From contig CM035361.1 in assembly GCA_020137815.1 (NCBI GenBank), forward strand, positions 2,046,001 to 2,110,000: 64,000 nucleotides of DNA, read 5' to 3'. A program made the translations under genes and the position numbers. This document shows, piece after piece, positions 18,701-27,700 of the stretch (positions are counted from its first letter, which is position 1; every line of letters begins with the position of its first letter). The stretch is from Hormiphora californensis (lineage: Eukaryota > Animalia > Ctenophora). The notes below the pieces were generated by a model. The model was not told the DNA's origin. It saw only the letters and a list, made by a program, of their open reading frames with translations, and made no database searches.

Positions 18701-21700
18701 ATGCCGGCAATGGTGGACCCTGAACAGCTAAATATCCACAGTTTACGGGGGATCATTGCTCGACATGGACTCACCCTTCCTAATCTATTCGAGTTGTCAC
18801 TTGAATTCTATAAAGAGGGTGAGCAATTAAATAATTAGCTAACTAATCAGCTAACTAATTAATTAATTACATCATCACTCCTCTAGAGAAGCACCAGTTC
18901 AAGTTGACGTATGAGCAAAAGAATCAGCTGGCGGCGTACTACCGACAATGCACCATGGGACCATACCACCCGGACAAGATGGAAGTTGGGTTCCTGGATT
19001 TTGTTGGAAATGATAGGAAGTAAGTGTTAGTTAGTGATTAATTAGTTGTGAGGAAGTTTTGTTTTCTCCTTCCGGCTGGACGAAATGAGTAGACGTGGTT
19101 TTTATTGTAGTTTTTATTAATCATAGCACTGGCAAGTGCCCCGGGCCCAAAAGGGGGGTGTGGGGGCACAGCCCCCACCATAAACGGGGGTGTGGGGGCA
19201 GAGCCCCCACCTTAGAAATACCCTCCAACTCAAAAAACAAAAGAGAGAGCACACGCACTACTTCTACACACAAACGCGTGAAAACCTGCCAGTGCTACTA
19301 TATACCATTGCAGATTTCGAGGTTTTTGATGCTTTAAAAAAGCATGTTCCAGATGAAGTAGAGAGCTGAAATTTTGTACTCTAAGGGCCCTCATATAGGA
19401 GAGGAGGCATGCAAATTTTCAGAACGATCGGATGTAAGGTAAAAATTTGCCAGAGGGGTCCCAAAATGCAAAAATGTAAGGAGGGGGAGGGGAGGGGAGG
19501 GGGAGGAGGACGCTTTTTTATCTTTGAGTGTTCTCCTAAACCACAAATAGTAGAGACTTGCCGTTTGGAACAGTGGTTCCTTACATCATTGCGCTCGGTA
19601 ATAGCTGTGTGGGAACTTCGAAATCGCCATAGTTCATTAATTATTCATTAATTAGTCATTAAATATTCATTTTAACCATAGTTGCGATATGACACGACTG
19701 GAAGGTCATAAAGACTTGAAACCGGTCTTATTCGACGCGGAATGGTCGGTTTATGGGGGGTCTTACTCGGGACAAAAATCTCTATCTCGCACCGTTAAGC
19801 CGTCATTTGCATATTTATGCACCTATTCACGATTTTATGCATATTTTCAATATTTTCACTTCAGCTGGTCCTAGAACGTTTTCATGGACATATTTCGACG
19901 CAAAATAGTCGATTTATGGGGGGTCGTCCCCCGGACAAAAAGTCGTATCTCGCACCGTTTAGCCGTTATTTGCATATTTATGCACCGATTCATAATTTAA
20001 TGCATATTCTGAATATTTCCAGTTCAGCTGGTCCTAGAACGTTTTCATGGACATATTTCGACGCAAAATAGTCGATTTATGGGGGGTCTTACTCGGGACA
20101 AAAATCTCCATCTCGCACCGTTGAGCTTCTTCTCAAGGAAGTGGAGAATCAGAGAGAGAAGAATCTGTGGTTGACAAAAACTGGACTCGGTTATGGATGG
20201 GGGTCTACTTCGTTAGTGCCAACAGAACTTGATGAGTATCCAGTAGTTGCAGCTTTACTTGAAACAATCAACCGGGAGGATGGTTTCGGTACTAATGGAC
20301 TTGAGCTGAACTCATGTCTAGTAACAAAGTACCGTGACGGTCAGGGGATCGGCTACCATACAGACTTTGAAGCGTGCCTAGATGATACTGCACCAATCAT
20401 AGTTGTTAGCATCGGTGGCCCTGGTAAAGTTGACTTTAGAGCATATGAGAAGAAAGGAAGGTCTGCTCCAGATCTCGAACTCACTCCTAGATCGGGTTCT
20501 GCCTACATAATGCGGCCTGGCTGCCAGGAAAAGCTTAAGCACAGGGCAACACACGCTGGGTTGACGGAGGTAAGGTATGCACTCTCCTTCAGACGGCGAG
20601 TTGTCCCCACGGTATCCCCAGCCAAGATCTCAGCGGGTACCCAGGTCTCTCAACCGCCCTCTCTGACCCCAGCAGGTGATGGGAATCAATCTCCCTCAAT
20701 TGACCAGTCGACCCCGGCCCCTTCATTTCCAGTTCGTAACCAGAACCCCAGGATTGCTAGCACTCTTCTTCTGGGGACCAGTATGTCTAAATGGGTCAAA
20801 GGCCCCGGGTCGGGTAAATTTGTGGTTTCCCCGGAGCTAAGTGGTGAAAAAACCTCACCCAAACGGGAAAAGGGCAACAGTTTGGTGCTGAGACGACGCC
20901 GACCCCCTGATGGGGGTTCGAGAAGGTCTTATTGCTTTTGGGACGAACATTTGGGTTTTTCACAGGGGTTCTTTTACGACCCCCAAACCCAAAAAAAAGT
21001 ACAAGAGAGTTGTTGATTAGTAGAGGACCGAAAAGTTCCGGGCAATCGGTGGATGTTGTATTGGCGGGGGTGCCACCACTGGGCCTTTTTTTTGACTTCA
21101 CTGTTGGAACGTCCCATTTAACAGAATTTTAACTGTGCGGCCATGTTAGAGTGTGGTGGCATGTTGGTTTGTAAATTCCAAACAGAGGAGCGCCTCTTTA
21201 ATGAGTCTTTGTTAGGGGGATGGTGTTCACTTGAAAAGTATGGTTATCCTACCACAGTCTGATACGATTGAGGGGTTGTGTGTTACTTTTTCCCGCTTAT
21301 GCTGACATTCTAGCTAAATTTAATTTTTTACGCTAAAATTTATGATGCAATAATTTAGTGATAGTTGGGGCTGGGTTGTGAAAATTGTCTAAATGTTTTT
21401 ACTCTCCCCCGCCCCCCCCCCCTTTTTAAAAATTTTTTACCTTTTTTTACACACAAAAACCCCCATTCCCCTTTCCTTTTTATCCCTATCTCCCCCCGTG
21501 GGCGTGGGAAACCTGTGGTTACAACTGTCCCCCCAAAAGAAGTACCAAACGATTAGCTCGACAGTATCGAAAAGTATTGGGGGGTTTGGGGGGGAAGGGT
21601 AGACTACTAAGACAAAAAACCCGAAAGACAAAAATTACAGACCCCAAAGGAAAGAATCCAACCAATCTTCACAATGGATTATCTCACTCTATTGTGTGCT

Positions 21701-24700: not shown

Positions 24701-27700
24701 TTCTGACTACAGACGGTACACGAGACTACAGATAAACAGAGACTCGACAGATTTAATTTGTACTGAACAACCTAGGTCTGACACTTTTGCTCACAGTTAC
24801 TTCTATCGCTGTCATAAGGAGTGGAATAAGCTCCCCACTGAAATGCGACAAGTTGTAGAGCATGACATCTTTTGTACTAGGCTTCATGAATTTTTGTTCA
24901 TGTTGGGAAAAGTTTAATTCCCGGCTGTGTCGGCAGATCTGCTTAAATGTATTTAGGTTAAATGCATGGTTTAGTTCATTCAGGTTTCTTGTTTGATGTT
25001 GTGTTGGTGGGTCTGAAACGATGTTAACGATTTTGCCGACACAGCCGTGAAGCATGTATTACTTAATATCAGCTCACTCGTAGACAAATTAGGAACAAAC
25101 AGAACTAATATAACAGAGGGGGGTGTGGTCGGGTGGTTAACTAGATAGAAAATAATTTATTTATAACTTATTAAACCAAAATATATTTTTATATTTTCAT
25201 AAATTTATATATTTTTATATTTTTATTAATGTATACTGTATTAGTCTGTTTGTCCGTAGTGTGTGAGAACTGTCTGTGCGTGGATTCTAGAGTATAATTT
25301 GAGGTGTAAGCGCTCCGCTATATTGTCATTTTGTCAATAGGAGCCAGCCGGGATAGTTTCTTTATATATGCAATGTATGTATTGATTTTTATCCTTCTTC
25401 AAAAAAAAAAGAAAAAAAAAAGTTATTTGCATATTTATGCACCGATTCATGATTTAATGCATCATACTATTATTAAAGCAAATAGGGAAATGATGGGTGA
25501 TGGTTTTTTTACCAAATATGGAACAAAATTCCTGGAAATGGCCTTTTGCACGTGTTGTCCCTAGAGGGACCCTGGCAACCTGCCATCTTGAGCCTTAAAC
25601 TGCACGTGCATCCTTGATTCATCTCTCTGCCGGTTGTGTGATTGATCGTGTGCTCGATTTGATCTGTTCACCCCCTGTTCACCACGTTTCGTGAACATGA
25701 CTACTCAGCTTCAACACAATCGCCAGCGAGTTTGGAGGAGCCATATGTCCCAAACTGGCGCTGACGCCTATAGACTACGTGATAGAATCCTACAAAAGAG
25801 GTGATTATTATTCAAAAAATGTTGTCAACACACGTAATAACAAAGTATCAATGGCACTAATAAGAAATGGCAGTAATACGTGAAAGTATTTACCGGATAA
25901 AAAAGATAGAACAAACTTATAATGTCATGTTGTACAACATCTCGCAAAATAGATAGAAATAGGTTGAAAGTATTTTGCAAATGTGCTCCTTCATAAAATA
26001 CTTCAGGACCTGGCAAAAGAGGACCCGTGGTTTTTCTGTCGAAAGAATCGCTGTGGTTAATTTACCTGATAAATTTACTGATTTTAAAAATTTCAAATGA
26101 TACTACACTATTTGCTTAGTTTACTGTATGACCATTGACCATCCCCGACATTCGCCCGTAGGGCGAGCGGGCTTACTAGTATTCTTAATATAGTAGAGTC
26201 GATAACTACATCGACCTCTCCCAATTGTTCCAGTTTTTGTCACATCTGTTTGGAGCCTCGACACGACCTCTAAACAGGCGTTACTTTTTCACAAACTGTT
26301 TTCATCTTGGTGTAATCAGCAGTTGAAATGTTGCTGATCATAACAAAAACCCAACTATTTTTTTTTCAACTTGGGGTAAAACCATGGGTGTCAAAAGTTA
26401 GCTCTAGGTCCCCTGAGTAACCATCCGGAGACTCTAAGAGATATTTCAAGCCGTTCTCCCGTAATCATTAATCCCGGTGGAGAAAAAATACAATGCGGAC
26501 GTACGTGAGCGCTGGCAGGCTGTTTACATGTTATTGTATGTCTCTCACTCTCTCTGGAAAAACCGCACGTGCGGTTGCGCCGCGCGAGATAACTCTTTCT
26601 CAAGGGGGAGAAAAGAGAGAGACGCACATTAACGTTATACATTAAAGTTGAGGTTGTAGGCAATTGCACGTACGTCCATACTCAAATATGTGCTCTACCG
26701 GGATTAATGATTACAGGAGAACGGCTTGAAATGTCTCTTAGAGTCTCCGGATGGTTACTCACGGGACCTAGAGCTAACTTTTGACACCCATGGTTTTACC
26801 CCAAGTTGAAAAAAAATAGTTGGGTTTTTGTTATGATCAGCAACATTTCAACTGCTGATTACACCAAGATGAAAACAGTTTGTGAAAAAGTAACTCCTGT
26901 TTAGAGGTCGTGTCGAGGCTCCAAACAGATGTGACAAAAACTGGAACAATTGGGAGAGGTCGATGTAGTTATCGACTCTACTAATATTTCCACTTCGGAT
27001 GGTCCCAGAACGTTTTCATGGACATATTCCGGCGCAGAATAGTCGATTTATGGGGGGTCGTCCCCCTGACAAAAAGTCGTATCTCTCACCGTTTAGTCGT
27101 TATTCGCATATTTATGAATTATTCAAATTCGAAAATATGCAGAAATCAGAAAAAATTCCGAAAAAATAGCTTTTTCTATTTTACACCAAAAAGAACAGAA
27201 ATTTAGTCCAAAAACCAATTAAATAAATTAGTTTGGATGCCCGGGCCCATGTGGTGTCACGGGGGTAACACCTTTAGGCTATAACTGTCATAAATGATGG
27301 ATATCGATAGCGATAAAGGCAAAGGAAATTAGGATAGAAAGGGTGAGATATAATCAAGAATCAAGTGAAAGAAACAGTGAGAGAGAGAAATAGTGTGTGT
27401 GAGAGAGAGAGAGAGAGAGAGAGAGAGAGAGAGAGAGAGAGAGAGAGAGAGAGAGAGAGAGAGAGAGAGAGAGAGAGAGAGAGAGAGAGAGAGAGAGAGA
27501 GAGAGAGAGATAAAGATAGACAGATTGGAGGATAACAATTAACAATTAACGAGATATGCCGTTAATTATGGCAGTAGTCCAAAGGTGTTACCCCCGTGAC
27601 ACCACATGGGCCCGGGCATCCAAACTAATTTATTTAATTGGTTTTTGGACTAAATTAGTTGAAACTTAATATTAGTTAAGAGTTTACCCTTAGCAGTTGC

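Follow-up and report, generated by a model that had tools for sequence, protein, structure and literature searches.

Does a retrotransposon carry its own nucleic-acid demethylase, and if so, is this the property of a family of elements or of one accidental copy? The question is raised by positions 2,046,001 to 2,110,000 of contig CM035361.1 of the ctenophore Hormiphora californensis (assembly GCA_020137815.1), a stretch of 64,000 nucleotides that is called the window in the following. An initial annotation had seen in it a long interspersed element (LINE) in which an AlkB-family domain is encoded by the open reading frame (ORF1) ahead of the one that encodes an apurinic endonuclease (APE) together with a reverse transcriptase (RT), ORF2. 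The segment 20123..25421 of the window is a single 5'-truncated LINE insertion, and that a whole family of LINEs carries AlkB domains is hardly open to doubt.

In the window, the AlkB domain lies in the frame 20072–21016 and matches the Pfam family 2OG-FeII_Oxy_2 (PF13532; 2OG, 2-oxoglutarate) with an E-value of 1.2e-13 and 52 bits, against a cut-off of 31. The catalytic residues that had been claimed for the ORF 20141–21016 (His, Asp, distal His, Arg and Arg) could all be assigned to codons, and the block after the linker that had been likened to block I of an SGNH esterase has its serine codon, the closest known protein (P0001) continuing from there into a GDSL/SGNH domain. Downstream on the same strand, as the initial annotation had it, follow ORF2, with an RVT_1 match (E 1e-30) and the carboxy-terminal APE motifs GDLN (22485) and SDH (22698), and a poly(A) tail. 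The 5' truncation, the poly(A) tail (Table 1) and the absence of long terminal repeats (LTRs) are hallmarks of a LINE. Intact units of the host repeat around the element (at 19790 and 19953) read CACCGTT-WAGCC-GTTATTTGC; the left flank terminates in CACCGTT (20116–20122) and GTTATTTGC resumes at 25422. The two flanks thus belong to one interrupted repeat unit, from which it follows that AlkB and RT arrived in one insertion, as had been proposed. Between 1 and 5 nt of the target were deleted, and there is no target-site duplication.

The ORF 20141–21016 itself holds up as the carrier of an AlkB domain and of the start of an esterase, but not as a gene unit. What stands at 20141 is a GTG within an ORF that has been cut short at its 5' end, and beyond about 20803 the frame is garbled, so a complete gene is ruled out. 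The copy begins at residue 60 of P0001; the promoter, the start codon, the amino-terminal helix and the first predicted strand are lost. Because of the missing 5' end and start codon, the window copy is likely a dead element that would make no enzyme.

The same linkage is found in other elements. A single pattern scan, run on metagenome contigs, brought up 40 loci: nine encode an AlkB of the family (E<1e-28), two a stand-alone AlkB-like protein (L023 and L028), two give weak matches (L035 and L037) and 27 have no AlkB or esterase match. L018, L021 and L032 are complete two-ORF elements, in which an intact AlkB-esterase ORF1 is followed by a full APE-RT ORF. The start of ORF2 is visible downstream of ORF1 in L024 and L038, and L019 has the same ORF2 amino-terminal region as L038. 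In P0238, from a Mnemiopsis-named cluster, two AlkB domains, the esterase, APE and RT are contained in one protein record. Pfam matches to APE and RT are present in L018, L021, L032 and P0238, and in these four the AlkB-RT linkage that the initial annotation wished to see in other copies is evident. One locus speaks the other way: L010 continues for 548 nt downstream of ORF1 without a recognisable ORF2. L001 and L003 break off inside ORF1 or within 60 nt of it, too soon to show whether an ORF2 followed.

The ORF2 proteins of the window, L018, L021 and P0238 are 40–54% identical, while that of L032 (2372–6154; its amino-terminus is Cys-rich, and downstream of the RT it carries inserted PHD fingers) is only 24–35% identical to them; this type of ORF1 is therefore shared by two or more RT lineages that are distant from each other. 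L010 (245–882) and L032 (432–1069) share the AlkB segment alone, 638 nt at 97.6% identity, with the esterase and everything beyond it differing, which suggests either module swapping or a chimeric contig. The elements may be termed CR1-like on the strength of their esterase ORF1 and of carboxy-terminal motifs. As a separate feature, ORF2 of L018 (539–4108), L021 (437–3925), L038 and P0238 starts with a hydrophobic extension of 150–190 residues, with two to three transmembrane-like peaks in L018 and L021. Immediately ahead of the APE, the extension closes with NPGP or HPGP. The DxExNPGP core of the 2A-like motif is lacking there. Even so, this end is similar to a 2A-like motif that is reported from LINEs (PMC3708506, excerpt).

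Could the window copy be an artefact or an accident, either a chimera produced in assembly or the retrocopy of a host ALKBH that came to lie upstream of a LINE by chance? We regard this as scarcely credible, as the same layout recurs in unrelated loci (L018, L021, L032 and P0238), the AlkB domain shares its reading frame with the retroelement esterase to which it is fused, and the flanks are parts of one repeat unit. The short-read data provide what can be said for it. Among the contigs listed, none spans the whole element, and the RT half is covered by two contig classes, one exact and shallower, the other about 88% alike and deeper, whereas the AlkB half is 97–99% like the deeper class. Window-type letters at 20664–20725 make up about one third of the depth in runs X1 and X2 (none were seen in X5), and their depth in X1 and X2 is close to that of the window-type RT contigs, which counts against a chimera. 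Two subfamilies with near-identical ORF1 but differing ORF2 would explain the contig classes. The window copy could be a mosaic of two such subfamilies, and even then both of its parts would come from one and the same family. At the 5' junction, short-read contigs of the element match from 20120 or 20124; one extends 120 letters further, and these letters are absent from the window. From a further run, X8, presumed to be RNA, a single piece of 44 nt matches, which speaks neither for nor against expression.

Between the two halves, at 20803–22326, the contigs of three DNA runs (X1, X2 and X5) show one and the same set of differences from the window, namely 236 nt replaced by 255 nt and nine single-base insertions at 21107–21154. 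Homopolymer runs are frequent (13 in 21251–21500, against 0 to 4 per 250 nt inside ORF2 from 22501). As this patch of 1.5 kb is heavily damaged while its flanks are 97–100% like the contigs, it is most likely unpolished sequence rather than biology or decay. Four gaps in it are bridged by short-read contigs (20802–21039, 21235–21510, 21909–21984 and 22019–22326), a further argument against misassembly, and remnants of the esterase can be traced across frames to 21247 by tblastn with P0001. With the ORF2 amino-termini of L018 and L021, nothing significant was detected in this noisy stretch; the best match (E 0.03) lies on the wrong strand.

What an intact ORF1 protein (ORF1p) looks like is seen in P0001, which has 463 amino acids, is 91% identical to the window copy over the AlkB and linker part and belongs to a cluster with a Pleurobrachia member. 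Its order is amino-terminal helix, AlkB, SGNH esterase; in P0001 and six other longer relatives alike, AlkB is joined to a GDSL/SGNH domain, and 26 of 32 long relatives selected by hand match a 2OG-oxygenase as well as a GDSL family of Pfam (E<=0.01). Related clusters (50% identity) number 522 at E<=0.001 and 134 at 1e-10 in a full HMMER scan. Conservation was counted over 155 proteins, many of them fragments, made up of the best 150 of the 522 and further search matches. The first His is kept in 155 and the Asp in 154; for the distal His the count is 150, for the first Arg 150 and for the second 148; of the 150 relatives aligned at all five positions, 147 keep all five, so that the residues on which the initial annotation had based its claim are conserved in other copies. 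Being drawn from the best 150 of 522, these counts favour query-like residues and lean towards conservation. In the esterase, the Ser is kept in 124 of 126 aligned proteins, the Gly in 125 of 129, the Asn in 113 of 115, the His in 103 of 105 and the Asp in 73 of 103. Over 52 full-length proteins the mean identity is 37% for AlkB, 34% for the esterase and 16% for the linker. A tandem pair of AlkB domains precedes the esterase in P0029, P0046, P0089, P0093, P0094, P0110 and P0238.

Among ten AlkB cores, 44 of the 45 pairs have a proportion of synonymous differences (pS) of 0.69–0.92, that is, saturated, against 0.30–0.57 for non-synonymous ones (pN); in the single pair that is close, about 1% of sites differ. 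Given this saturation, and the few differences in the remaining pair, no ratio of non-synonymous to synonymous rates (dN/dS) can be given for the cores. Neutral decay of AlkB is not seen: the ligands are invariant despite saturated synonymous sites. The P0028 cluster is multicopy, with four Mnemiopsis gene models of three sequence lengths, and the P0244 cluster has 12 members, mostly full length on large contigs. All species-named clusters among the 30 looked up are from ctenophores, namely Pleurobrachia bachei (the cluster of P0001, and P0002) and Mnemiopsis leidyi (P0028 and P0029); among Atlas clusters with taxa, Ctenophora is the commonest, on one to three members each. The family is apparently a large, old LINE radiation of ctenophores. 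A scan of viral contigs with the alignment A3 produced 67 pattern matches, none of them a relative. Family ORFs bear the label 'alkylated DNA repair dioxygenase AlkB' or pass for hypothetical host genes.

The predicted structure of P0001 (predicted local distance difference test, pLDDT, 87.5; predicted template-modelling score, pTM, 0.56) consists of two folded domains connected by a disordered linker, preceded by a predicted helix of 22 residues (17–38) that is missing from the window copy. Against the PDB, the family profile matches ALKBH3 (1e-19) and ALKBH2 (2e-18) best, and E. coli AlkB at just 1e-5, while its second half matches the esterase of zebrafish ZfL2-1 ORF1 (PDB entry 4c1b, 2.6e-16). 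The best Foldseek match of the P0001 model is ALKBH2, with an E-value of 1e-12 and a target template-modelling score of 0.71–0.76. Neither ALKBH5 nor FTO is among the 57 PDB profile matches. Human ALKBH2 and ALKBH3 and the stand-alone AlkBs of phages and bacteria, the best matches in sequence and fold, have the HxDxE motif, the lid aromatics and R-x5-R in common with the LINE AlkB, at about 20–35% identity. At the second position after HxD, 146 of 155 have Glu as the acidic residue, in alignment with the DDE of ALKBH2/3; its E. coli AlkB counterpart D135, which forms bonds with adenine N6 and cytosine N4, recognises N1-methyladenine (m1A) and N3-methylcytosine, and its mutation is reported to lower m1A repair about 100–200-fold (PMC11065319, excerpt). 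The aromatic lid pair has Tyr in 132 of 155 and Trp, Phe or Tyr in 142 of 155. The finger-hairpin segment of ALKBH2 appears to be 6–13 residues shorter in the LINE AlkB.

Three observations tell against a plain ALKBH2/3 assignment. ALKBH5 does appear among the Foldseek matches; its first entry, at rank 33, does not fit an ALKBH5 type, but its E-value (2e-9) is only three orders weaker than that of ALKBH2. The Asn of the N-x-Y motif of ALKBH2/3 is Asn in 8 of 155 only, and mostly Ser or Thr (111 of 155); that of the R-x-N motif is Asn in 2 of 155 and Ser, Cys or Ala in 145 of 155. Both are presumably involved in 2OG binding. Similar replacements are present in the stand-alone AlkBs P0153 and P0218. 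By its sequence, the LINE AlkB would work like ALKBH2/3 without being their orthologue, as judged by the Asn-motif test.

A maximum-likelihood tree was calculated with 32 family rows (17 chosen, 14 random and the window) and 29 of 41 stand-alone rows, 12 close relatives having been dropped; the stand-alone rows had been collected by searches with family members, and the tree contains no animal ALKBH and no plant-virus sequence. In it, the 32 LINE AlkBs form one clade (96/81) apart from the 29 stand-alone AlkBs, and jumbo-phage AlkBs are its weakly supported sister (89/86). In a larger FastTree, from which P0019 and P0139 were left out for having too little AlkB core, 170 tips form a single clade at 0.80. 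By their features, jumbo-phage and giant-virus clusters are the nearest look-alikes lacking an esterase, which is a lead only. A processed host ALKBH pseudogene is very unlikely, given one LINE clade (in a tree without animal ALKBH) and the retained ligands. In a record labelled Acinetobacter phage (L044), ada, alkB and an IclR regulator stand in a row, and the record looks like a bacterial chromosome.

How does this ORF1 compare with known ones? Esterase-type (type IV) ORF1s of CR1, L2 and RTEX LINEs, such as that of ZfL2-1, likewise have an amino-terminal helix, a linker and an SGNH esterase with Ser, Gly, Asn and His upstream of APE and RT; here, a whole AlkB domain (two in some members) is placed between helix and esterase. 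With 2OG-oxygenase and GDSL together in most long relatives, the protein is not a standard type IV ORF1p, which has no structured nucleic-acid-binding domain besides the esterase. On sequence grounds, it is a variant beyond that type, with an ALKBH2/3-type dioxygenase added. The ZfL2-1 esterase is reported to bind membranes and its helix to multimerise, and esterase ORF1ps are reported from many animal phyla (PMC3905857, excerpt). PMC4120745 places esterase ORF1s of CR1/L2 solely in vertebrate subgroups, unlike here, where the host is apparently a ctenophore. The terms 'AlkB', 'oxygenase' and '2OG' are absent from the main texts of two LINE ORF1 surveys (PMC4120745 and PMC13343379) and from the main texts of PMC12477816 and PMC5408684. 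No AlkB-bearing LINE is described in titles or abstracts of the full-text literature searched, a search that lies outside Repbase and subscription journals.

AlkB domains are known from two other kinds of genetic parasite, the first of which is a precedent in a retrotransposon. The AlkB of a Phalaenopsis Ty3/Gypsy element is also retrotransposon-encoded, and RNA binding and demethylation are reported for it, but it belongs to an LTR element, has an ORF of its own, is ALKBH5-like, specific for N6-methyladenine (m6A), recent and known from one orchid genus (PMC9289625, excerpt). The LINE AlkB, in contrast, is found in a non-LTR element, fused into ORF1p, is ALKBH2/3-like and spans hundreds of clusters below 50% identity. 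Plant RNA viruses share with the LINEs a compact AlkB within a larger protein of an RNA-based parasite; theirs has a viral replicase context, spread recently and is frequently inactivated (PMC2553587, excerpt).

What the domain does for the element may be pictured as follows. LINE ORF1 proteins are made in many copies and stay with their own RNA; m1A and N3-methylcytosine (m3C) block base pairing and so reverse transcription. ORF1p would multimerise through its amino-terminal helix and travel with its own RNA, by analogy with other LINEs, and its esterase would target membranes, as in ZfL2-1. The AlkB domain, to judge from its active-site residues a Fe(II)/2OG-dependent N-demethylase of the ALKBH2/3 type preferring single strands, would sit on single-stranded element RNA or first-strand cDNA and oxidise m1A and m3C, leaving a clean template for target-primed reverse transcription, as proposed for plant RNA viruses with AlkB. 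The domain is very probably catalytically active on nucleic acid; the proposal that m1A/m3C repair of the element's own RNA or cDNA is its main role is evenly balanced between right and wrong. The ALKBH2/3 type and the conserved acidic residue after HxD favour such repair over m6A erasure, and ALKBH5/FTO-type erasure was rejected as the lead mechanism, the active site being of the m1A/m3C type and the PDB profile matches lacking ALKBH5 and FTO. Viral AlkBs repair m1A and m3C with a preference for RNA, as reported in vitro and in E. coli (PMC2553587, excerpt). Weighing on the other side, transposition of most LINEs proceeds in the absence of AlkB, and hosts have an ALKBH2/3 of their own; why this lineage should need the domain is not explained by repair.

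Removal of marks placed by the host, either 5-methylcytosine (5mC) on the new DNA copy or m6A and other methylation on RNA, would let the element escape silencing; we consider this rather unlikely as the main role. The active site is of the m1A/m3C type, 5mC is a minor substrate of ALKBH3 (PMC11065319, excerpt) and m6A helps human L1, whose retrotransposition is suppressed by the eraser ALKBH5 (PMC7873242, excerpt). It is encouraged, however, by the reported in vitro oxidation of 5mC by ALKBH2, ALKBH3 and AlkB (PMC6582317, excerpt), by the orchid Gypsy AlkB, proposed to counter host surveillance through m6A demethylation (PMC9289625, excerpt), and by the tandem duplications and the mean AlkB identity of only 37%, which suggest a fast-changing module.

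The AlkB fold might instead serve mainly as the RNA-binding or chaperone module otherwise missing from esterase-type ORF1, with catalysis secondary. Its position between helix and esterase is where ZfL2-1 has an arginine-rich motif, Repbase esterase ORF1ps are described as having no structured RNA-binding domain, with the mode of RNA binding left open (PMC3905857, excerpt), and the orchid AlkB still binds RNA when catalytically dead (PMC9289625, excerpt). If binding were all that counts, however, the five ligands of metal and 2OG would not be preserved in 147 of 150 relatives; plant viruses, by contrast, often carry inactivated AlkBs (PMC2553587, excerpt), and the AlkB cores are just mildly basic (net charge -2 to +9 in ten sequences). 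This role is improbable. Quite improbable, too, is an active dioxygenase with another target, be it host tRNA or mRNA, side chains of ORF1p or ORF2p, or etheno adducts from lipid peroxidation near membranes: no feature pointing to one of these was found, and methylated A and C are what the lid over the nucleobase and the acidic residue suit, even if fusion with a membrane-binding esterase would put the enzyme at membranes and ALKBH2/3 also repair etheno adducts and demethylate tRNA, with ALKBH4 acting on protein (PMC11065319, excerpt).

The features of the element and its flanks are collected in Table 1.

Table 1. Features of the AlkB-bearing LINE copy and its insertion site (window positions)
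Feature	Position	Strand	Basis
Host 163-bp tandem repeat, 2.4 units, left flank; third unit interrupted by the insertion	19731..20122	+	Tandem Repeats Finder (TRF), direct repeats, junction motif
Junction of the 5' truncation; element and target share a 6-of-7-nt microhomology	20120..20126	+	short-read contigs; unit comparison
AlkB domain of ORF1 (ALKBH2/3-type 2OG-Fe(II) dioxygenase, as predicted), without its amino-terminal ~60 residues	20123..20600	+	Pfam; 91% identity to P0001; PDB profile and fold search
AlkB codons	H 20357, D 20363, E 20369, distal H 20540, R 20573, R 20591	+	codon positions
Pro/Ser-rich linker, predicted disordered	20601..20764	+	pLDDT <50 at P0001 228–272; mean identity 16% vs 37% for AlkB
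SGNH esterase of ORF1; block I intact (Ser 20780), rest frameshifted, end approximate	20765..21290	+	tblastn with P0001; Pfam GDSL on P0001; PDB 4c1b match
Error-rich stretch: rest of esterase, spacer, first ~300 ORF2 codons	20803..22326	.	contigs of runs X1, X2, X5; homopolymer counts
ORF2, readable part: carboxy-terminal half of APE, reverse transcriptase (YADD 24060), carboxy-terminal region	22281..24917	+	Pfam RVT_1; 40% identity to ORF2 of L018, L021, P0238
3' untranslated region	24918..25400	+	opens with 18-nt inverted repeat 24918–24935 / 25034–25051
Poly(A) tail	25401..25421	+	
Right flank, interrupted host repeat unit continuing	25422..25451	+	unit comparison

The inverted repeat in the 3' untranslated region begins right after the ORF2 stop and is a candidate RNA stem for recognition by the RT. 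The interrupted 163-bp repeat sits in a host repeat of very high short-read depth (19300–20122 and 25422–26181), which ends with a GC hairpin and then CTAG-T near 26150–26181; this resembles a Helitron 3' end. Nested inverted-repeat elements follow downstream (26191–26983 and 27200–27656). The window contains a second, apparently intact LINE on the minus strand (5181–9004), with an ORF2 of 1006 amino acids containing APE and RT and 24% identical to the focal ORF2. Its ORF1 (8114–9004), which overlaps ORF2, has Cys/His knuckle-like motifs, no Pfam match and no AlkB. A host gene at 30618–35056 has a long Glu/Val-rich exon of 21-bp repeats, and the AlkB LINE may lie in one of its introns; its carboxy-terminal region resembles a GOLD domain. 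A large palindromic array of 10/20-bp units based on TGGCGCCA occupies 47600–53900, with an error-rich-looking stretch near 52700–53900.

LINE ORF1 proteins are usually seen as RNA-packaging and membrane-targeting parts, and here a nucleic-acid-modifying enzyme is kept intact in one. The AlkB domain may explain how esterase-type ORF1p grips RNA. Where AlkB-LINE ORFs are annotated as host genes, the number of ALKBH genes in ctenophore genomes and marine metagenomes would come out too high. A more far-reaching history, which we advance tentatively and think rather unlikely, is a single capture of an ALKBH2/3-type dioxygenase, perhaps from a large DNA virus or phage, that was then swapped and duplicated in an ancient ctenophore LINE radiation over at least two RT lineages and reverses a methylation-based restriction of retroelement RNA or cDNA by the host. 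If true, it would be an enzymatic counter-defence inside a LINE ORF1, pointing to an unrecognised anti-transposon methylation pathway in early-branching animals. Retention of AlkB across hundreds of divergent families would mean that methylation of bases, whether it is damage or a mark set by the host, truly stands in the way of retrotransposition in these animals, and the family offers a direct test of a long-standing question from plant virology, namely whether a parasite-borne AlkB repairs chance damage or defeats host defence.

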